Assembly: GCA_001774685.1 (NCBI GenBank)
Contig: MFAS01000001.1
Span: 1,025,252-1,089,251 of the forward strand
Length of the DNA stretch: 64,000 bases
Direction of reading: 5' to 3'
From: Candidatus Collierbacteria bacterium RIFOXYD2_FULL_45_13
GTDB lineage: Bacteria; Patescibacteriota; Microgenomatia; UBA1400; MFAQ01
The position numbers were made by a program, and so were the translations under genes. Below the pieces are notes generated by a model. The model was given only the letters and a program-made list of their open reading frames with translations, ran no database searches and had not been told where the DNA came from. Of this stretch, positions 3,917 through 49,778 are shown piece by piece (the first letter of the stretch is position 1; each line of letters begins with the position of its first letter).

Positions 3917-5749
3917 CTATCTCCCTCTTCCTATCAATCTCGACCACATACCAGATACTGCTTTACCTGCTCTTTTCATAAAGGCTGTCAAACCATTATC
4001 CTCAGTTGGATTTTCAGTGGCGGTTACCCCACCAAATCTCTCTGTGGCCTCATCCCTCAAAAATCCAACTAGACTACTCATCACAGCTAGGTTGCTCCTC
4101 GTCTCCTCCATCATCTGATTCATTCTAGTTTCTCCTGATACACGCGCACGGTTCAGTTCGTCCAGTTTTCTATCGCGATCAAGATTTACCTCCCTGGTTT
4201 CATTTCGAGCCCGATCTCTAATGGCTCTAATTTCCGGCTTCACTGGCTGATAGGCTTCTTCAATCATATCTACTGCTTCAAACCCAGTTGCTCCATTTTT
4301 GGCTTTAAAATTACCTTCAGCATCTAGTTCAAGATCTTCGTTATTTTCCAGTACTCTTGCCGTCACCGTATCTACGGACACACGTTTACGCTCAGATACT
4401 CCATCAATTTTCTTGTTTGCTTCATCATTTATTTCCTCAGCCCACTGTTTCGTAGCCTCTTCCAAAGAATCCATCGACTTAGCAGTCTCCACTACTACCG
4501 AAAACTCACTGAGTGCTATTACGTCAGCCACCTCATTAAGGCTCTTCAAAGCCTCAGCTCCACGTAATTCAACTGAGCTCATTTTTTCTGCAGCGCGATC
4601 GAGCATATCCCTGTCTTTTTCGATCAGTGCCTGCAGCTCACCAACTACTTTGACAACTTCTTTTGAATCATTCATCCGTACGTCTCTTTGTCTGCCGATT
4701 TCACTTTTTCTTTCTTCCAGCTGATGGACTTTTTCTTCGGCAGTCAACCTCACCGATTCTAATTCACCGAGCCGGACATTTCCTTGTTTAATTTTCTCTC
4801 CAAAGCCGGCAGTCTTTTTTTCTATACTGCTCTTGGCATCAGATAAAGAATTCACCATATCAGCTTCAGCCGCTTCCAATGCCTTCTTATTGTCCTGCTG
4901 AACGGCCACTTTATCTCTCTCCATCCTCTCACCAAAATTCTCCAGTCTTTTTTGCTGTAACTCCTCACCTTTGTGTGCACCTTCCAGCACCAATCCTGCC
5001 TGATATGTCACATCCAAACCGAGTACAGAAAGAGCCTTTCTCGCATTTTCATCCAAACTCTGGCCCGCTTCTATTTTTGACCTGTACTCAATTAACAACC
5101 TTTCTGCCTCAGCGATCTCTGGTTTATATTTTTCGCTCACCTCACTTAGCTTGTTATTCAAGTCCAAGGACAGACGACCTTTCTCCGCCGAGAATTCGTC
5201 TTCAATCACTCTTGTTTGTCTAGCCAACTTTGCTTCACCTAAGCTCAGTGATTGCTCCATAAAAAACACAGCACCGCTTTGTTGCATTATTTCTGACTGC
5301 ACTTTAGCCAAATCCTGTCTAGCTTGATCAAGATTCTTTTCTGCCAGTTTGTAGTTCTCCTCCAACTTCGCGGCCTCCTTCTGAATTTGTGGCACACTGC
5401 GTTCAACATCAGCCTTGAATGTCTCCCTCTGTTGAAGTCGTGCTCCCACGTTTTCCTGAAATCTGCCCATTCTATCAGCGTGAGAAATACTTAGCTTTGC
5501 CTCTGTCTTTATCCCATTTATATCTACCTGTCCTTGAGCAGCAATGGCGCTAGTCGCCTCAGCTGGGTTTGCAATTGCACCCATACCTTGTTCTGTTGTA
5601 ATGACTGGGGCGGTCGAAAATCCATCCGGGTGCAAAGTTAGTGCTTCCGCCATCGGTTCCGGTGCTACTCCTAGGGTAAATTCAGCTGCAAAGGGTGCAT
5701 CCCCGCCTTGATTACCGTCTTTATCTACTGGAGGATTCTGTGCTTCCAT
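3917..5749 (-). CDS. Long coiled-coil protein (610 aa), hypothetical
   Basis: Long ORF with an Ala/Gly-rich N-terminus followed by ~500 aa of E/K/L/A/Q-rich heptad-like sequence. No Walker motifs, so not SMC-like. Confidence 0.75.
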   Translation of the reverse strand: MEAQNPPVDKDGNQGGDAPFAAEFTLGVAPEPMAEALTLHPDGFSTAPVITTEQGMGAIANPAEATSAIAAQGQVDINGIKTEAKLSISHADRMGRFQENVGARLQQRETFKADVERSVPQIQKEAAKLEENYKLAEKNLDQARQDLAKVQSEIMQQSGAVFFMEQSLSLGEAKLARQTRVIEDEFSAEKGRLSLDLNNKLSEVSEKYKPEIAEAERLLIEYRSKIEAGQSLDENARKALSVLGLDVTYQAGLVLEGAHKGEELQQKRLENFGERMERDKVAVQQDNKKALEAAEADMVNSLSDAKSSIEKKTAGFGEKIKQGNVRLGELESVRLTAEEKVHQLEERKSEIGRQRDVRMNDSKEVVKVVGELQALIEKDRDMLDRAAEKMSSVELRGAEALKSLNEVADVIALSEFSVVVETAKSMDSLEEATKQWAEEINDEANKKIDGVSERKRVSVDTVTARVLENNEDLELDAEGNFKAKNGATGFEAVDMIEEAYQPVKPEIRAIRDRARNETREVNLDRDRKLDELNRARVSGETRMNQMMEETRSNLAVMSSLVGFLRDEATERFGGVTATENPTEDNGLTAFMKRAGKAVSGMWSRLIGRGR

Positions 5750-6638: not shown

Positions 6639-6644
6639 CCCTCT

Positions 6645-6672
6645 CCCCGCCCCAGGCGGGGTTTTTCTTATT
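6645..6672 (+). terminator. Rho-independent terminator after the L,D-transpeptidase gene
   Basis: CCCCGCCCCAGGCGGGG + TTTTTCTT. Confidence 0.65.
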
Positions 6673-6689
6673 AATCTATCCCATATTAG

Positions 6690-34247: not shown

Positions 34248-36506
34248 CTAAACAGCAACCATCTCTTTTTCCGCTCGCTTCAGGAGTACCGCATTTGTCG
34301 CCACAATGATCGAAGACACACTCATTAGTAGCGCCGAGACTTCAGGTCGGAGCGAAATACCATAAGCCGGATACAAAACACCGGCAGCCACCGGAATCGC
34401 CAGCAGATTGTAGATCGAAGCCCAAAAAAGATTTTGTTTCATTTTTCGTACCGTCGCCTTAGAAAGTTTTATTGCCCGAAGAATATCTGCCGGATCAGAC
34501 TTCATCAGCACCACCCTGGCCGTTTCAATCGCCACGTCCGTCCCTGCTCCAATGGCGATACCAACATCCGACTGAGCCAAGGCCGGGGCATCATTCACCC
34601 CATCCCCCACCATGGCAACAAACTTGCCTTCATCTTGTAATTTTTTAACATAAGAAGCTTTCTCTCCGGGCAGTACCTCAGCAAAAATTCTCTCGATTCC
34701 TAGTTGCTTCCCAATCGCTTCCGCAGTTTTTTGATTGTCTCCGGTGATCATGGCCACTTCCAGTCCCATTTCTTTCATTCGAGTTACTGCCAGCTTGGCA
34801 TTTTCTTTTACCGGGTCAGACGCCGCCGCTACCCCCGCCAGCTTTTTATTCACCGCAAGTATCATTATCGTTTTTCCTTCAGACAAGAGCCTATCTATCT
34901 CACTCTTCAGGGTCGTTGTATCAACTTTATAATCTTTCATCAGTTTTTCGGTACCTACCAAGACATGCTTACCTGCCACCACCGCCTCCACTCCATGCCC
35001 CGCCAAGTTCTTAAATTTTTCCACCTTTGTCGAAATAGTTATTTTTCTTCTCTTCGCCTCTTCCAATATCGCCAAGCTCAACGGGTGAGATGACTTTGCT
35101 TCCACCGCTCCATCGAGACCAATAATTTCATTTTCAGTAAAGCCACTTGCCGCAATCACATCCGTAATTCTCGGCTTTCCTTCCGTTAGTGTTCCGGTCT
35201 TGTCTAGCACTACTGCTTGAATTTTTGAAACCTGTTCCAGGGTAGGCGCATCTTTGATCAAGATATTATGTTTTGCTCCCAACCCTGTCCCTACCGCTAC
35301 CGCTGTCGGTGTTGCCAGTCCGAGCGCATCCGGGCAAGCTATAACTATCGCCGAGATAGCAAAAGTCAGAGCCAGCATCAGTGGTTGACCAAGTACAAAG
35401 TACCAAACCAAGAATGTAATCAGACCTCCGCCTACCGCCACGATGACCAGATACTGAGCAAATCTATCTGCAATTTTTTGTCCTGGCGCTTTCGAGTTCT
35501 GAGCTGTCTCCACCATCTTGACGATCTGAGCGAGTGCAGTGTCTTCTCCTATTTTTGTCGCTTTGAATCGTACCGAGCCCGAAGTATTTATCGAACCGCC
35601 AATCACCTTATCACTCACATTTTTTACGACTGGTAGTGACTCCCCTGTTACGAGTGATTCGTCGATCGCTGTTTCTCCTTCGGTAATTTCTCCATCCACC
35701 GGCACTTTGTCCCCGGGTTTCAGAATCAGAATGTCGCCAAGTCTTACTTCAGATGTTGCTATCAGAGATTCTTTTCCGTTCTTCCACAGTCTGGCTTGAG
35801 GTGGCACCAGATCAAAAAGTGCTTGGAGGGCATCAGTCGTCCCTCTTCGGCTTTTCATCTCCATCCAGTGGCCAAACAAAACAAAGGTGGTGAGCATGGC
35901 TGCCGCTTCATAAAAAGACTCCTCACTCCCCAGCAGTGTGAGCACCACACTAAAAGCATAAGCCGCTGTTATACCTACAGCGATGAGCACCGCCATGTTT
36001 AATGCCTTGGCTTGTAATGCCTTGTAAGTAGAGTACAGAAAAATCCAGCCGGAATAAAAATAAACCGGTGTAGTTAAGAAGAACATTATCCAGCTCGCAG
36101 AAATCGGCATCGGCAGCTTCAATCCAAATATATTTGTTCCGAGAGGAGAATAAGCCACTATCGGTATGGTCAAAAGAAGGGACACAAAAAATTTATTTCG
36201 AATATCTTCTTCCATCATCTTCGCCATTTCCCGGCCGGCCAATCCGGTGTGTTCCATTCCCATCGCCATGGTCATACTCATTTTAAATTTTTCCCAAAAT
36301 GACATTTTTACACCGGGCTTCATCTCATGCTCCATCACCTGGTCACCATGACCCTTTTTATTGTGGTCCATTTTCATCTCCCCACCTGCAGGGCCTGGCC
36401 CTGCAGGCTTGTCATGTTTCATCACAAGCTCCATTCCGCACTTGGGGCACTTCCCTGGTTTGTCTAAGATAACCTCTGTGTGCATCGGACAGGTGTAGTT
36501 CATCAT
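34248..36506 (-). CDS. copA: Heavy-metal (Cu-type) P1B-ATPase with N-terminal CPxH/CxxC metal-binding (HMBD-like) domain, Met/His-rich stretch and atypical CPD transmembrane motif
   Basis: N-terminus YTCPMHTEV...KCPKCGMEL; MxM/His-rich segment; TGES (LVTGESLPV), DKTGTLT, GDGVNDAPAL. Ion-pathway motif IACPDALGLATP (CPD, verified on the DNA). The REP palindrome is inserted in frame at 36385-36407 and encodes PAGPGPAG. Confidence 0.85.
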   Translation of the reverse strand: MMNYTCPMHTEVILDKPGKCPKCGMELVMKHDKPAGPGPAGGEMKMDHNKKGHGDQVMEHEMKPGVKMSFWEKFKMSMTMAMGMEHTGLAGREMAKMMEEDIRNKFFVSLLLTIPIVAYSPLGTNIFGLKLPMPISASWIMFFLTTPVYFYSGWIFLYSTYKALQAKALNMAVLIAVGITAAYAFSVVLTLLGSEESFYEAAAMLTTFVLFGHWMEMKSRRGTTDALQALFDLVPPQARLWKNGKESLIATSEVRLGDILILKPGDKVPVDGEITEGETAIDESLVTGESLPVVKNVSDKVIGGSINTSGSVRFKATKIGEDTALAQIVKMVETAQNSKAPGQKIADRFAQYLVIVAVGGGLITFLVWYFVLGQPLMLALTFAISAIVIACPDALGLATPTAVAVGTGLGAKHNILIKDAPTLEQVSKIQAVVLDKTGTLTEGKPRITDVIAASGFTENEIIGLDGAVEAKSSHPLSLAILEEAKRRKITISTKVEKFKNLAGHGVEAVVAGKHVLVGTEKLMKDYKVDTTTLKSEIDRLLSEGKTIMILAVNKKLAGVAAASDPVKENAKLAVTRMKEMGLEVAMITGDNQKTAEAIGKQLGIERIFAEVLPGEKASYVKKLQDEGKFVAMVGDGVNDAPALAQSDVGIAIGAGTDVAIETARVVLMKSDPADILRAIKLSKATVRKMKQNLFWASIYNLLAIPVAAGVLYPAYGISLRPEVSALLMSVSSIIVATNAVLLKRAEKEMVAV
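36385..36407. repeat. REP-like 23-bp palindrome CCTGCAGGGCCTGGCCCTGCAGG, in frame inside copA (encodes PAGPGPAG)
   Basis: Exact copy of the palindrome found four times around the RAYT gene. Confidence 0.9.
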
Positions 36507-41323: not shown

Positions 41324-41408
41324 AAGATACTACTATTGTAGTACAATTTTAAAAAGGGTAATTTTCTACAAATATTTGTTCGATGTATTACAATAATTTA
41401 TCACCCAA

Positions 41409-41432
41409 GTCATCCTCGCGAATGCGGGGATC
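41409..41432 (+). repeat. 24-nt direct repeat GTCATCCTCGCGAATGCGGGGATC, copy 2 (divergent promoter region between blaI-1 and the DUF305 gene)
   Basis: Exact match to 39899-39922. Confidence 0.8.
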
Positions 41433-41455
41433 CATAGAAATTATAAATAATAAGT

Positions 41456-42043
41456 ATGACCAAACAACCTTTTCTTTATCTCGTACTCGGTCTTCTTGCC
41501 GGCGCTCTCATCACTTCGGCATTCTTATCACCCAACAGATCAGAAACTTCGTCTGACTCCAATATCGACCGCCACTTTATCGAGCAAATGATTCCCCATC
41601 ACGAAGATGCTATCACCATGGCAAACTCCGCCCTAAAAAAATCCAAGAAATCGGAAATAAAAACTTTGGCTCAGAACATCTTAAAAAGCCAGGGTGATGA
41701 AATTGCTCAAATGACTCAGTGGTACGGCGAGTGGTTCGGAAAAGAAGTTCCCCGTGGTGCAACTCAGATGGGTACTCATGGCATGATGGGCTCTGGAAGC
41801 AGTATGCATATGGGTTTACTGGGAAACGAAACAGACATTCTTTCTCTTGACACTGCTGTAGATTTCGATAAAGAATTTATTAGACAAATGATCCCCCATC
41901 ACCAGATGGCCGTCATGATGGCAACGATGCTGGAAAACAGCACGGATAAGTCCGAAACGAAACAACTGGCCAAAAACATCATCATCGCCCAAAATAAAGA
42001 AATCACCGACATGCGATCCTGGTACTCCACTTGGTACAAATAA
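41456..42043 (+). CDS. DUF305 family protein (secreted, two internal repeats)
   Basis: Two copies of the DUF305 motif: DRHFIEQMIPHHEDAITMA and DKEFIRQMIPHHQMAVMMA. N-terminal signal/TM. Confidence 0.8.
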   Translation: MTKQPFLYLVLGLLAGALITSAFLSPNRSETSSDSNIDRHFIEQMIPHHEDAITMANSALKKSKKSEIKTLAQNILKSQGDEIAQMTQWYGEWFGKEVPRGATQMGTHGMMGSGSSMHMGLLGNETDILSLDTAVDFDKEFIRQMIPHHQMAVMMATMLENSTDKSETKQLAKNIIIAQNKEITDMRSWYSTWYK

Positions 42044-42071
42044 TTACCTCTTATTATTAATAATAAATAAT

Positions 42072-42341
42072 ATGAAACACGATCCAATCGTCACTGGACA
42101 CGCCGCGGGAGCCACCACCGCTATTGTCTATACCGTCTGCCGTCTCTTGGTGGGATTATTTCCCGACTGGATGTATTCCATGGGCCAATCCTGGTTCCAC
42201 GGAATAGCTTTACAAAAACTAGAAAACACCAACCTGACACTGGGAAGCTTTTTCTCAGGTTTCATCTCTGTCACCATAAGCGCTTGGCTAGTCGGTTTCC
42301 TCTTCGCCAGCATGTACAACTCCTTCCTCACCAAGAAATAA
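42072..42341 (+). CDS. Small membrane protein, hypothetical
   Basis: 89 aa with two hydrophobic helices. The REP palindrome follows immediately at 42358-42380. Confidence 0.45.
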   Translation: MKHDPIVTGHAAGATTAIVYTVCRLLVGLFPDWMYSMGQSWFHGIALQKLENTNLTLGSFFSGFISVTISAWLVGFLFASMYNSFLTKK

Positions 42342-42357
42342 TCAATCCAATCACCCC

Positions 42358-42380
42358 CCTGCAGGGCCTGGCCCTGCAGG
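42358..42380. repeat. REP-like 23-bp palindrome, copy 1 (just 3' of the RAYT gene)
   Basis: Exact sequence CCTGCAGGGCCTGGCCCTGCAGG, a perfect palindrome around a central T. Confidence 0.9.
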
Positions 42381-42387
42381 TAAAAAA

Positions 42388-43071
42388 CTACTCATCTAAA
42401 TCAATCATCTCGTAATAAACTTTCTTAATATCTTCCATGTCTTGTGGATCTTCTACGAAGGATTGGTATGTATTCCTTCTATTTATTTTTGAAAAGTTTG
42501 AAAGTATCTCCTCAATCTTTACCCAATTTTGTTGAAACAATCCCAAGTAATTTCCATAACTAGAATATTTATACTCCACCAGACCTGCAGGGCCTGGCCC
42601 TGCAGGCAAAATGTCAATTGGATTCCGATGAATATATTTAGTTATATATACAAACTGATCTTCATTTTCAATCAAAACAGTCTTGTACCTGCTTTGAAAC
42701 AAACCACCTACTCGTTTGTATTTCTTATTAAAATACATCACGTACTTCAGCACTAAAGATTGCATGAATTCCGCGATACCACGATCGGTCGATTGTTTTA
42801 TCAAAAAATGGAAATGGTTGGGCATCAAGCAGTAGGCTAGCAAATCAATCTGATCATGGTAATTCTTAAGAACTTTCGATGGTGATACCTCCTGCAGGGC
42901 CTGGCCCTGCAGGATGGGCATCTCGAGATAAAATTTCATATATCCTAGGAAGACCTTGTAATCTTGCTCATCAAGAAAAATCGCCCGCTTCTCCACTCCT
43001 CGATTAAAGATATGGTAATACCCACCAGCCCCATATTCCTTTCGACTGTTTTTTTGTGGCATATACCACAA
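42388..43071 (-). CDS. IS200/IS605-family Y1 (HUH) transposase, likely REP-associated tyrosine transposase (RAYT), carrying two in-frame REP insertions
   Basis: YHIFNRGVEKRAIF...AYCLMPNHFHFLIK (HuH) ...GGLFQSRYK (catalytic Tyr). Flanked by two copies of the 23-bp palindrome and containing two more, which encode PAGPGPAG and LQGQALQE. Confidence 0.8.
   Translation of the reverse strand: MWYMPQKNSRKEYGAGGYYHIFNRGVEKRAIFLDEQDYKVFLGYMKFYLEMPILQGQALQEVSPSKVLKNYHDQIDLLAYCLMPNHFHFLIKQSTDRGIAEFMQSLVLKYVMYFNKKYKRVGGLFQSRYKTVLIENEDQFVYITKYIHRNPIDILPAGPGPAGLVEYKYSSYGNYLGLFQQNWVKIEEILSNFSKINRRNTYQSFVEDPQDMEDIKKVYYEMIDLDE
42584..42606. repeat. REP-like 23-bp palindrome, copy 2 (inside the RAYT CDS, in frame, encoding PAGPGPAG)
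   Basis: Exact copy. Confidence 0.9.
42891..42913. repeat. REP-like 23-bp palindrome, copy 3 (inside the RAYT CDS, in frame, encoding LQGQALQE)
   Basis: Exact copy. Confidence 0.9.
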
Positions 43072-43094
43072 TTATAAACACCAGTCACCTCCCC

Positions 43095-43117
43095 CCTGCA
43101 GGGCCTGGCCCTGCAGG
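43095..43117. repeat. REP-like 23-bp palindrome, copy 4 (between the RAYT start and the copA stop)
   Basis: Exact copy. Confidence 0.9.
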
Positions 43118-43125
43118 GTACCGGA

Positions 43126-46100
43126 TCATTTAGTTTGGTTTTGTACCAATTTAAAATAATTTTCCTTGAACTCTTTCGACACAAAGTGCATCTCATCCAG
43201 AACCGTAAAGTTCTTTTTGGCTACCCCGGCAACTAGCACATCACTGCCAAAGAGTCCGGTTATTCTATCTTGGTTGTTTGTAAACAGTTTCTCCTTCTTC
43301 ATCATGGCTGCTTCATTGTAACCAATATAAATCGGCAGGAATCTCTTACCTTCAATGTTGTAACTCAGCTTATACGGATCCACTATTCCCTTAAGCTGTT
43401 CAGGAGTATTCTTCCCGTCCAGAATGTAGAACAGTTTCAGCTCATCATAAGGAGTCTGGGCTACGACCAGGTCAGATCCGTCGACTTTAGCAAATGCCTC
43501 TTTACCCATCAAGTGATACTCGTCCAAAATTGTATTGGTAGGAGCTAGGATTCCCGCTATTCTTACCTTGGGCACTCCAAAGAAGTTATCGATAGTGTCA
43601 CCGACTTTTCCAAATAATTTTTCTTCTCTCATCATCTCGGCCTCCTTACTACCAATCACGATTCCCGGAACTTCACCCGACATATCCAAACCGCCCTCGG
43701 CTACTTTAATGTTTCCATTCACCGTACCGGCACTCAAGAACATCTTTGTCTGTCCTTCCTCAGTAATCAGCACCCTTGATTCTCCTGCAGTCAAAAGCTG
43801 AACTATCAAAGTATTTATTCCCGGCTGCGTCTGGGCATAAGTCTTCACCACACCCATATTTTCTTTTGTCGAGATCGTGGCAAACTGCCAGAAGATAAAC
43901 AGGAAGGCGGCGGTCATCACTACCGGAGCCAGTTTTGATAACAGGTTCCATCCCTTCGGATTAAATCTTTTTAACACTAGTGAGTTACTTACGACCGACA
44001 CGGACGACAGTGTCATGGCCAGTCCCGCCAGCTCCGGTTTGAGTATCAGACCAATTCCGGCAAAGATTCTGGCGGCCACCGGGATTCCCAGAACGTTGTA
44101 GAACAAAGCGAAGAACATGTTTTGTCTGATCTTATCGACAGTTTCTTCACTGAGTTTGATGGCTGTCAGGACTCCATTCAAATCATTGTTCATAATGATT
44201 ATTCCACCGGACTCCAGAGCAATGTCCGCGCCTGACGCCATGGCAATCCCCAGATCGGCCTGCACCAAAGCGGGTGAGTCATTGATTCCGTCCCCCACCA
44301 TCGCCACGGTTTTACCCAGCCCTTGAAGTTTTTTAACTTCCTCGGCCTTATTCTGTGGCAACACTTCTGCGAGCACGTTGGTAATACCTATCTGCTTGGC
44401 AATCGCATTCGCTGTCCTTCGGTTATCCCCCGTGATCATGTAAACTTCAATCCCTTTGTCTTGTAGTTTTTTGACTACTTCGGCAGTGGATTCTTTTACC
44501 TGATCTGCGACCGCGATAATTCCTAAGATCTGTTCTTTGTTGGCAATCAGCATGGCTGTCTTACCATCTTCTTCCAGTCTTTCCAGATCCATAAAGGAGA
44601 AGGCTTGGACTTTCTTCGACTCCATCAGTCTTCTGTTGCCGATATAGTAAGTCTGTCCGGCAATGACGGCTTCTACTCCGTGTCCCGGAATTGCTTGGAA
44701 GGATTCCACGGGAGTTTGCAAATCCACTGAAGAGATTCTTGTCTTGCAGTAATCCACAATGGCAGCTGCCAGTGGATGTTCCGACTTGGCTTCGACAGCA
44801 TTCAGCACCGTCAAGATTTCCTGTTCGGCTTTATTGGAATAATTAATAAAGTTAGTCACTTCCGGTTTCCCTTTTGTCAGAGTTCCCGTTTTATCAAACA
44901 CAATCGCGTCAATCTTGCAGGCCGTCTCCAGAGGCTCTCCGCCTTTGATTAATATTCCCAGCTCCGCACCCTTACCTGTCGCCACCATAATGGCTGTTGG
45001 TGTCGCAAGACCCAAAGCGCATGGGCAAGCGATCACAATCACCGACACAAAGGCCAGCAGGGCAAAGGTTAGTGGCATGCCGAGAAGAAAGTACCACACC
45101 GCAAAAGTCAGCAGAGCGATACCAATCACGACCGGGACAAAGATAGCTGAGATTTTGTCGGCAAATCCTTGTATCGGAGCTTTTGATCCCTGCGCATCTT
45201 CAATCAGTCTCACAATCTGAGAAAGAACCGTATCGGCACCGACTTTACTTACCTGGAACTCAAAACTACCTGTTTTATTAATTGTGGCGGTATACACTTT
45301 ACTTCCCATCTGTTTCTCCACCGGAATACTTTCCCCTGTTAGAGCCGACTCATCTACCGCACTATTGCCGGTCACAATCACGCCATCGACCGGTACTCTT
45401 TCGCCGGGCCGGACCAGAACAATATCACCCACTACTACCTTTTCTATCGGCAGATCCTCAGGCATTCCATTACGCATGACTCTCGCGGTTTTAGGAGCCA
45501 GCCCCATCAATTTCTCGATCGCCTGTGAGGTTCGCCCTTTAGCCTTGGCCTCTAGCCACTTTCCAAGTGCCACAAAGGTAATTAGTAATGCCGCTACTTC
45601 GAAGTACAAATTCCCGATCTTCATTCCGTTTAGTCCATAAATCGATCCGGTTTCCACTGTAAACTTCAAAAACTCAAGCAGACTATATACATAGGCTGTC
45701 AGTGTTCCGATAGCGATCAAACTATCCATGCTAAAGGTTTTCATTTTTAAAGCCGAAATTGCCCCACGAATAAAGTTATTACCTACCCAAAACTGAACGG
45801 GGGTCGCAAGCACCAAAGAGATAATTCCACTGATTGGCATAATTACTTTGGCAAAGGGAAGTCCTGCCACAAAGTCATAGATCATAAAACCCACCATCGG
45901 TAAACTTAAAATTAATCCGGTGAGAAACTTCCTTCCCCAATACCTAATCTCCAAAGATCTTTTTTCGTTTTCACTTACTCCGGCACTCTCTTCGGGCAGT
46001 GTTGCGGTATAGCCGGTTCTTTTTACCGCTTCTTTAAGCTCACTTGGACTAACCGCCAGAGATTGATATTTTATTCTGGCTTTACTGGTCGCAAAGTTAA

Positions 46101-46533
46101 CATTCGCTTCGGTAACTCCTTTAGTTTTCACTAGTGATCTTTCAATCAGTCCGGCGCAACTGGAACAATGCATCCCTGAGATATTTAGGTAAGCAATCTG
46201 ACTATCCGACTTTTCCTCTATCATTGTCTCGCGACTTGGCTGGACCATATCAACGATTTCACTATCTAGAGTTTTTGAGTTTTTGAGTTCTTGAGTTTTC
46301 TGTATTCCGTTCCCCGTGATCGACGTCGCCGTATACCCTGCTTCCTTAATGTTTTCAATCAGTTTATCTTCCGTAATTGCCTTCGGATTGTATTCCACGT
46401 CCACCTGTTTTGTCGCTAGTAATGCGTTAACAGACTTCACTCCTTTTAGTCCTTTAAGATTCAAAGAAATGAGTTTTGGGCAGGACTCGCAGTGCATGTC
46501 GGCAACTGCAAATGAAGTTTGTTTATAGTTCAT
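43126..46533 (-). CDS. copA: Cu+-exporting P1B-1 ATPase with two N-terminal HMA domains and an unusual ~330-aa C-terminal extension containing an internal duplication
   Basis: HMA1 [11 protein letters not shown] and HMA2 [11 protein letters not shown]; TGES (ALTGESIPV); CPC ([12 protein letters not shown]); DKTGTLT; [10 protein letters not shown]. After the last TM there is a ~330-aa tail with two similar ~50-aa segments (…[24 protein letters not shown]… and …[24 protein letters not shown]…). Confidence 0.85.
46263..46298. repeat. GAGTTTTT/AAAAACTC octamer tandem repeat (x4), in frame in the copA HMA1-HMA2 linker (encodes [12 protein letters not shown])
   Basis: The same tandem octamer recurs at 56764-56799 and 60468-60495. 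Confidence 0.7.
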
Positions 46534-49722: not shown

Positions 49723-49778
49723 TCCTGTAGGGCCAGGCCTTGAAGGATGAGTTTCCTATAAGGCCTGGCCCTAACGGA
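49723..49778. repeat. Degenerate, split REP-like element: CCTGTAGGGCCAGGCC-(22 nt)-GGCCTGGCCCTAACGG in the blaI-2 / DsbD_2 divergent promoter region
   Basis: Two half-sites related to the REP palindrome form a 16-bp inverted repeat around a 22-nt loop. Confidence 0.55.

Follow-up and report, generated by a model that had tools for sequence, protein, structure and literature searches.

A 23-nt DNA hairpin brackets a gene for a RAYT-like Y1 HUH protein and recurs twice, in frame, inside that gene in a 64,000-nt stretch of the genome of Candidatus Collierbacteria bacterium RIFOXYD2_FULL_45_13 (GCA_001774685.1, contig MFAS01000001.1, positions 1,025,252–1,089,251; the whole stretch is called the window). 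Homologous loci carry hairpins specific to their lineage, and in each lineage the hairpin recurs upstream of the start codon, downstream of the stop codon, and at both internal sites. Sequence comparisons indicate that the constrained or homogenized entity is the DNA hairpin and not the peptide that it encodes, and that the four copies evolve in concert. On balance, we favor the reading that the locus is a REPtron-like unit, a REPtron being a RAYT/TnpA-REP gene flanked by its own repetitive extragenic palindromes (REPs) (Nunvar 2010, PMC2817692; Ton-Hoang 2012; Bertels 2017, PMC5581495; structure 4ER8). It would belong to a large class-2 Y1 HUH (RAYT-like) family specific to the Candidate Phyla Radiation (CPR), and its own gene would be the most frequent target or exchange partner of the hairpin.

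A hairpin repeat around and inside the Y1 HUH gene

The 23-mer CCTGCAGGGCCTGGCCCTGCAGG has exactly five exact matches in the window, starting at positions 36385, 42358, 42584, 42891, and 43095. These are the five copies listed in the initial annotation, which was made from the sequence alone. The number expected by chance is zero (100 dinucleotide-preserving shuffles). The 23-mer is an odd-length palindrome with 11-nt arms and one unpaired central base, and as single-stranded DNA it is predicted to form a 10–11 bp hairpin of -12 kcal/mol (z = -3.6). All six frames are free of stop codons, and the only possible readings are PAGPGPAG, LQG(Q/L)ALQ, and CRA(R/W)PCR. The repeat is GC-rich by contrast with the genome (42–46% GC). 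Each 23-mer contains two SbfI/PstI sites, and the ten SbfI sites of the window all fall within the five exact copies. A search of the hairpins against Rfam returned no family, and a promoter and terminator scan found no such feature at the hairpins.

Four of the exact copies cluster at the Y1 HUH gene (42388..43062, minus strand; 224 residues from MPQKN). The end of the upstream flanking copy U (43095..43117) is separated by 32 nt from the ATG at 43062, and the downstream flanking copy D (42358..42380) begins 8 nt past the stop codon, so the gene is bracketed by its own palindrome as the initial annotation described. The two internal copies are in frame: I1 (42891..42913) encodes LQGQALQ and I2 (42584..42606) encodes PAGPGPAG. 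The fifth copy (36385..36407) is dispersed and encodes PAGPGPAG as residues 34–41 of copA. The in-frame readings of all three genic copies were correctly annotated.

Each lineage carries its own hairpin at the same four sites

Both internal peptides appeared conserved in a protein alignment of the 24 closest homologues (alignment A1), and the DNA of 80 further homologues was fetched because of this apparent conservation. The metagenome homologue search turned up ~600 loci. The set compared here comprises 86 loci and includes the 80 homologues (37–91% identity, metagenome DNA) and five genome loci. The four-copy pattern of the window is found with the same 23-mer in L027/L041, L011, L010, and L025. 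Other hairpins occupy the four places in L043, L047, L048, L049, L056, L081, L086, and more. Examples are CCTGCGAGGAGACTCCTCGCAGG with four copies in L049, TGACAGGGTCTCGCCCTGTCA with four copies in L056, CCTTTCGGGAGACTCCCGAAAGG in L048, and GGGTCGGACCC in L086. A flanking hairpin is present in 73 of the 86 loci, 14–72 nt before the start codon and 6–59 nt after the stop, and at least half of the 86 have the lineage hairpin at the two internal positions. The layout with two internal copies is a family-wide architecture, not a one-off accident. A transposase that had absorbed two of its own REPs had been presented as an unusual case, and this part of the initial annotation does not stand.

The enrichment of hairpins within the gene was measured with a hairpin core derived from the flanks alone and then matched against the whole locus. 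The flank-derived cores match 54 times within the genes (49.1 kb in total) and 7 times in distant flanking DNA (330 kb), which is a 52-fold difference per kb. All but one of the gene matches (53 of 54) lie at query residues ~49–65 (I1) or 151–159 (I2). The distribution is patchy; loci carry the hairpin at both sites, at I1 alone, at I2 alone, or at neither, and ~35 of the 86 have flanking hairpins only. L025 retains a decayed copy at I2, as does L046 at I1.

The peptides at the two sites track the lineage hairpin (LQGQALQ, LRGDSSQ, LSGDSRK, VTGSRPV), and the reading frame and exact position inside the loops vary between lineages. In the comparison of the window with L041, the hairpin columns are identical at 46 of 46 positions and the rest of the gene at 83.5%. 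Third codon positions within the hairpins are identical at 15 of 15 sites compared to 65% elsewhere (p = 0.003), and the comparison with L011 gives 15 of 15 compared to 40% elsewhere (p = 3e-6). A change of the central base flips Q to L freely among homologues, and close relatives keep the loop length while the hairpin sequence is swapped. Because peptides and frames change with the hairpin while synonymous sites stay frozen, these data point to a feature of the DNA. The stems stay paired through different base pairs across loci, a covariation count that is used only for base-pair variety since it is partly circular, the hairpins having been chosen for having a stem. The apical GG..CC pairs are near-invariant family-wide, and related lineages such as L100 and L113 have CTAC...GTAG inside the stem. 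The orientation of the flanking copies, judged by loop asymmetry, is mixed and follows no rule. A search for gene mosaicism at the hairpin borders (exchange of N-terminal, middle, and C-terminal cassettes) gave no convincing outliers and one odd pair, L098/L105.

The protein and its two variable loops

The predicted open reading frame (ORF) spans 42388..43071 on the minus strand and encodes 227 residues. The start codon is most likely the ATG at 43062 because the homologues all begin at MPQKN. The initial assignment as a RAYT-like Y1 HUH gene is borne out by Pfam Y1_Tnp (PF01797), which scores 42.1 bits against a gathering cutoff of 23, and by the fold described below. The match spans profile positions 38–121 only; the N-terminal part of the profile is uncovered because loop I1 interrupts it. 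The NCBIfam RAYT equivalog REP_Tyr_transpos (NF047646) scores 44.1 bits, under its cutoff of 80. Residues N85-H86-F87-H88 and K145-Y146-I147-H148 (227-residue numbering) are invariant in the 24-sequence alignment. The former is the HuH motif, given correctly as NHFHFL in the initial annotation. The catalytic tyrosine had been placed in SRYK, which belongs to the 'FQ' motif region. The predicted catalytic tyrosine is Y146 in KYIHRNP because it aligns to the catalytic tyrosine region of ISDra2 TnpA in a profile alignment and lies in the class-2 'Y---NP' motif (PMC6006769). This motif reads YIHRNP in the window protein, YIH[RL]NP family-wide, and YIHLNP in most relatives. Further motifs are 'FQ' (LFQ) and a YxYSS tail motif (YKYSS here), and the protein has a helical C-terminal domain. 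Even with the E threshold relaxed to 10, Pfam gave no helix-turn-helix (HTH) family (Bac_DnaA_C, HTH_23, HTH_28) for this domain. The conserved N-terminal Thr of Nunvar 2010 was not found, the first strand reading YHIFNRG, nor was the NP(L/V)(R/K)xG motif of the same study; here NP is followed by IDIL and then by the hairpin-coded PAGPGPAG.

The AlphaFold model of the protein has a predicted TM score of 0.79. Its best solved match by Foldseek is 4ER8, the E. coli RAYT–REP complex (E 3.5e-5, TM 0.67 on target), which outranks IS608 and ISDra2 TnpA. A sequence search of the PDB gave weak ISDra2 matches only, and 4ER8 was reached through the fold search. The per-residue confidence (pLDDT) falls below 50 at the termini and, internally, only at residues 55–65 and 153–159, which are the positions of I1 and I2. 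The I1 peptide is modeled in the loop between helix 35–49 and strand 75–82, before the HuH motif. The I2 peptide lies 10 residues past the catalytic tyrosine, between YIHRNP and YKYSS and just after the tyrosine helix. Both loops are hypervariable in length and rich in insertions and deletions across the family. The model places the hairpin copies in two disordered surface loops.

There is one copy of the Y1 gene within the window. A protein of Candidatus Collierbacteria RIFOXYB2_FULL_46_14 matches its product at 100% identity, and the identical protein is recorded from 25 contigs of NCBI, JGI, ENA, and Logan assemblies, including one of 1.09 Mb. The gene looks domesticated and RAYT-like.

Dispersed copies are filtered by reading frame

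Three other Collierbacteria metagenome-assembled genomes (MAGs) contain the 23-mer without a mismatch, as do several third-party annotation (TPA) MAGs labeled 'Pseudomonadales'. The GWB2_45_17 draft (LCKO01) holds ~12 exact copies, of which four belong to the Y1 locus and eight are dispersed. Among 27 copies away from the Y1 gene, 13 are in frame inside long ORFs, and Pfam confirms 9 of 10 checked genic hosts as real genes: LeuRS, a LysRS-like enzyme, ArgRS, PheS, ComM, GT1, GT2, thioredoxin reductase, and an Ig-like protein. The inferred spread of the palindrome into coding sequence is therefore upheld in related genomes. The 13 genic copies use two of the three possible readings (5 PAGPGPAG, 8 LQG(Q/L)ALQ, and 0 CRA(R/W)PCR; p about 0.005).

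The two frames behave differently. PAGPGPAG copies lie in linkers, loops, or C-terminal tails and give a net gain of residues, as in copA and in the LysRS-like doublet, which adds 14 residues compared to 9JKL. LQG(Q/L)ALQ copies mostly take the place of native helix residues, leave the length unchanged, and align without gaps to homologues in conserved domains. In PheS, KSLQGLALQDKQKFG aligns to KTLGDLPAEERPKVG of 4P71 without a gap, and in GT2, CLTSLQGQALQATEVIVVDDGS aligns to CLDSLLRQTYKNFEIILINDGS of 5HEA in the same way. ComM has one additional residue compared to 8RXD. The proposal of insertion as a flexible linker consequently fits the PAGPGPAG frame and fails for the LQGQALQ frame. The copA copy lies in a His/Met-rich linker directly after the HMBD domain (residues 3–30). 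It is kept in an 85%-identical homologue (P0121) and is absent from homologues of ≤79% identity, whose linkers are shorter. In the empty-site comparison for copA, the sole close homologue has the copy and the others differ in the variable linker, which leaves the boundaries of the copy undefined. LeuRS was compared with an 82%-identical orthologue that has neither hairpin, the loop having diverged between them. The alignment is suggestive of a net gain of ~21 nt for one unit and of the replacement of 26 nt by 23 nt for the other.

No conserved target-site motif surrounds the 27 dispersed copies, and there is a weak bias to T at +1 (14/27) and at -3 (15/27). Most dispersed copies are singletons (25/27); a partner forming a REPIN-type doublet is present in 2 of the 27, in addition to a degenerate doublet in the window. 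This intergenic doublet (49724..49777), which the initial annotation did not list, consists of CCTGTAGGGCCAGGCCTTGAAGG, an 8-nt gap, and CCTATAAGGCCTGGCCCTAACGG. Its units at 49724–49746 and 49755–49777 have 3 and 6 mismatches to the 23-mer, respectively, and opposite central bases (A, T). The arm 'CCCTAACG' is common to the unit at 49755 and the partner copy of L004. Doublets of the 23-mer are located in aminoacyl-tRNA-synthetase-type genes at L003:4160-4214 and L004:5256-5316. They have opposite center bases, a 9- or 15-nt spacer, and a second unit whose 3' arm is degenerate. In all five exact window copies the plus strand has T at the center, a base that varies in related loci; this uniformity may be chance (1 in 16). 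Almost all 2-kb bins of the window have a negative GC skew (cumulative -5.96), and the whole window seems to lie on one replichore.

A second, unrelated palindrome (..CGTCATTGCGAAGCACGCAGTGCTGTGGCAATCC..) adjoins the 23-mer in three loci and repeats exactly elsewhere in one such genome. Palindromes of the CGTCATTGCGAAGCACGCAGTGCTGTGGCAATCC type were recorded at L024:4466-4500, L009:6135-6170, L038:7838-7860, and L035:6503-6536 and 6644-6678. Given these exact repeats, more than one hairpin family is present. Single exact 23-mers were also found in unrelated high-GC genomes (58–70% GC; such as Streptomyces, Pseudomonas, and Aquabacterium) at L001, L002, L008, L014, L015, L018, L026, L028, and L030, with L018 and L028 orthologous. 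These are probably coding coincidences (LQGLALQ or PAGPGPAG in GC-rich codon usage) and not the same element. TPA MAGs labeled 'uncultured Pseudomonadales bacterium' carry the Collierbacteria 23-mer together with a RAYT-like gene that is ~70% identical at the nucleotide level (L003, L005, L007, L017, L019, L020, L022, L023, L025, L029, L032, L033, L036, L037, L040). The LeuRS of these MAGs is closest to Microgenomates/CPR proteins, and the 'Pseudomonadales' label therefore looks wrong.

Genomic neighborhood

In L041 (Collierbacteria GWB2_45_17), the Y1 gene is at the same place, beside a 1135-residue P-type ATPase, at 84% nucleotide identity. Because the neighborhood is the same at this divergence, the comparison suggests that the gene behaves as a vertically inherited RAYT, unlike an insertion sequence (IS). 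Synteny with L041 breaks exactly at hairpin D (within 2 nt of the hairpin end) and resumes at window position 41340. The ~1-kb segment at 41341–42357 thus lies between hairpin D and the sequence that directly adjoins the hairpin in L041. This segment contains a DUF305 gene (41456–42043) and a DUF5676 gene (42072–42341); the DUF5676 homologue of L041 is ~3 kb away and inverted.

The copA gene for a heavy-metal/copper P-type ATPase (34248–36506, minus strand) and the gene for a second heavy-metal P-type ATPase of 1135 residues (43126–46533) are less than 10 kb apart. The larger ATPase has two HMA domains and ~270 extra C-terminal residues past the ATPase core. The ATPases and DUF305 look like a metal-resistance island that surrounds the RAYT-like gene. 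No tnpB adjoins the Y1 gene, whose neighbors are the P-type ATPase and DUF5676. L063 is the sole locus with two Y1 gene copies, 2 kb apart (5001–5702 and ~7031), and its cognate hairpin is also found at +2011 from the first Y1 gene. All other long loci have a single Y1 copy.

Discussion

By analogy with related enzymes, we infer that the 23-mer is the cognate single-stranded DNA (ssDNA) hairpin of the Y1 HUH protein. The enzyme would bind and cut hairpins on ssDNA and rejoin the strand at the hairpin foot, in the manner of E. coli RAYT and IS200/IS605 TnpA (4ER8; PMC6006769; PMC2817692), and would thereby copy hairpins to new places. We propose that it acts preferentially near its site of synthesis and that its own gene is most often targeted or re-templated because the enzyme acts near where it is made. 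Only the two disordered loops would tolerate copies, and the accumulation and continual refreshing of hairpins there would appear as concerted evolution. Elsewhere, selection would retain only two harmless frames, Pro/Ala/Gly in linkers and Leu/Gln/Ala in helices.

Several points weigh against this proposal. Hairpin binding and cleavage are assigned to the enzyme by family membership only, and its preference for nearby sites is an assumption. Copies are few (the GWB2_45_17 draft has ~12 exact ones), the hairpin lacks the canonical GT[AG]G foot, and no target motif is conserved in the flanks of the 27 dispersed copies. Copy-in predicts a gain of 23 or 24 nt, whereas ComM, GT2, and PheS show a net change of 0 to +1 residue, and a hairpin in the RAYT loops can shift by 1 nt with the total length conserved. 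Either the copying mechanism is not the textbook one, or strong length selection hides it. Functional selection could account just as well for four copies that stay identical across long divergence. Length-neutral copies could arise by insertion with compensating deletions, by templated patch repair, or by exchange of a hairpin-sized segment. A more radical version, which we regard as unlikely, is that the enzyme overwrites ~23 nt of resident DNA with the hairpin and acts as a length-neutral ssDNA 'patch editor'. If true, patch editing would explain the replacement of codons without a length change in PheS, GT2, and ComM, the identity of the four copies, and the exchange of hairpins at a fixed place in the enzyme's own loops. 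In that case, the internal copies would act as substrates and tie the sequence of the gene to the activity of its product through self-editing or autoregulation.

The internal hairpins could instead be selected cis-sites at which the enzyme binds its own gene, as a displaced strand, or its mRNA, and so limits expression or activity. When specificity drifts, all four sites would have to follow, which would produce the concerted pattern. We consider this a possible but minority explanation. The four copies are perfect while the gene diverges by 16–30%, their positions are kept across lineages with very different hairpins, close relatives retain the loop length despite a swapped hairpin, and the apical GG..CC pairs hardly vary. 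However, the distribution is patchy, with flanking hairpins only in ~35 of 86 loci, copies decay in place (L025 I2, L046 I1), frames and exact loop positions differ between lineages, and the hairpins have no terminator- or promoter-like feature and no Rfam match. Patchiness, decay, and variable frames favor local re-copying, whereas copies that stay perfect across deep divergence, together with the constant loop length, favor cis-sites.

The other explanations were rejected or judged unlikely. That the unit is an active IS200-like insertion sequence, with the gene and its end hairpins mobile as a whole and not a domesticated RAYT, is improbable. The hairpin-gene-hairpin layout (14–72 nt before the start, 6–59 nt after the stop), the rearrangement breakpoint exactly at the downstream hairpin, and the two Y1 copies 2 kb apart in L063 are what such an element could leave. 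Against this, the gene occurs once in the window and, L063 apart, once in each long locus, its neighborhood is shared with a species of 84% nucleotide identity, and its ends are identical palindromes instead of distinct left and right ends. Its motif is the class-2 Y---NP and not the IS200 Y---Q (PMC6006769), and there is no adjacent tnpB. It is much harder to credit that LQGQALQ and PAGPGPAG are protein features needed by the enzyme, with the palindrome a by-product and the source of the flanking repeats. An alignment of the closest 24 homologues makes both peptides look conserved, and the trailing AGL of the second resembles the RAYT NP(L/V)(R/K)xG region (PMC2817692). Nevertheless, unrelated peptides that track the hairpin occupy the same sites in other lineages, the center base flips Q to L, frames differ, synonymous positions are frozen, both peptides are modeled as disordered, and the same 23-mer is found in unrelated genes and intergenic DNA. 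An assembly, adaptor, or linker artefact, which the initial annotation had raised itself, is next to inconceivable. A GC-rich 23-mer with two SbfI/PstI sites in a genome of 42–46% GC invites this suspicion, yet the same element and four-copy cluster are present in independent assemblies from different projects and assemblers (GW2011, CG_4_9, TPA co-assemblies, JGI metagenomes). Related lineages have other hairpins at the same places, degenerate copies exist, and frames are preserved.

The REPtron-like reading that we favor has to be set against described systems. Like a REPtron, the locus has a Y1 HUH gene, probably vertically inherited and single-copy in the window, that is bracketed by its own hairpin, which is also dispersed; gene and repeat co-evolve, and the best fold is the E. 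coli RAYT–REP complex. Unlike a REPtron, it has ~12 copies per genome instead of hundreds, its repeat is a near-perfect 23-nt palindrome without the 5' GT[AG]G foot, the copies are mostly singletons and not REPIN doublets (25/27), and about half of the dispersed copies are genic (13/27). Canonical REPs exceed 100 per genome and are mostly extragenic, compared to ~12 exact copies in one draft here. Strict REP membership, as initially annotated, is thus contradicted by the missing foot and by a copy number that does not reach hundreds. The protein differs from RAYTs in falling under the NCBIfam RAYT cutoff and in lacking Nunvar's Thr and NP(L/V)(R/K)xG.

The central idea of REPs inside tnpA-REP genes has a precedent. 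In TnpA-Y1 subclass 2.4 (Bertels group 4), REPs in frame within the tnpA-REP gene are a hallmark (Quentin, Siguier, Chandler, and Fichant 2018, PMC6006769). As in that subclass, cognate repeats lie inside the ORF of the enzyme with the frame intact, in a length- and sequence-variable region modeled as peripheral. The hairpins here are located before the HuH and after the Y motif, whereas the subclass 2.4 insertions are between them. The motifs are FQ, YIH[RL]NP, and an SS tail with a C-terminal domain instead of WQ, YIxNNP, and no tail domain. The protein has 224 residues compared to 194, and the hosts are CPR compared to Cyanobacteria and Bacteroidetes. Published subclass 2.4 REPs are long or 'double foot' with GT[AG]G (PMC6006769). 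The best motif match is to TnpA-Y1 subclass 2.1/TIRYT (NH[YF]H, FQ, Y[IV]HLNP, SS tail), an assignment by motifs only and not by phylogeny with reference members. Subclass 2.1 proteins have ~238 residues with an extra C-terminal domain, similar to the 224 residues with a helical C-terminal domain here. Their domain resembles HTH/Bac_DnaA_C, however, and none was detected here. Subclass 2.1 is reported to have no REP-like sequences nearby and to have terminal inverted repeats with GGGGWSAS instead (Di Nocera 2013; Quentin 2018), whereas hairpin repeats are present here.

Intragenic REPs have more precedent than the initial annotation allowed. In-frame intragenic palindromes are documented as Rickettsia palindromic elements and as intragenic GTAG/CGTC REPs, including in tRNA synthetase genes (Di Nocera 2013, PMC3733652), and within tnpA-REP genes too (PMC6006769). 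In both the Di Nocera repeats and ours, small palindromes are tolerated in frame in housekeeping genes, and the former are thought to sit in loops or linkers. The copies described here differ in being a single 23-nt unit of 8 residues instead of 20–50 added residues, in their clear frame filter, and in that several replace native residues without lengthening the protein. IS200/IS605 elements have multiple copies, distinct ends, Y---Q, and often tnpB, compared to one copy, identical ends, and Y---NP here. Patescibacteria and Parcubacteria do not occur in the text of PMC6006769, and a literature search of incomplete coverage found nothing on this family, the four-site concerted pattern, the frame filter, or the length-neutral copies.

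What is new compared to these systems is the CPR host clade, the two-loop architecture with enzyme–hairpin covariation, and the unexplained replacement-type copying. RAYTs and related enzymes are ssDNA nucleases that are widespread and apparently domesticated, and what they do in the cell is a standing question. If our reading is correct, REPtron-like systems extend to the CPR in a family of thousands, in a motif class formerly reported without REPs. The dozens of matched protein–hairpin pairs are a natural experiment on enzyme–hairpin co-evolution, and the frame filter and length-neutral copies provide testable hints on how such enzymes rewrite DNA. The frame filter and these copies also show how small genomes tolerate mobile hairpins within coding sequence.

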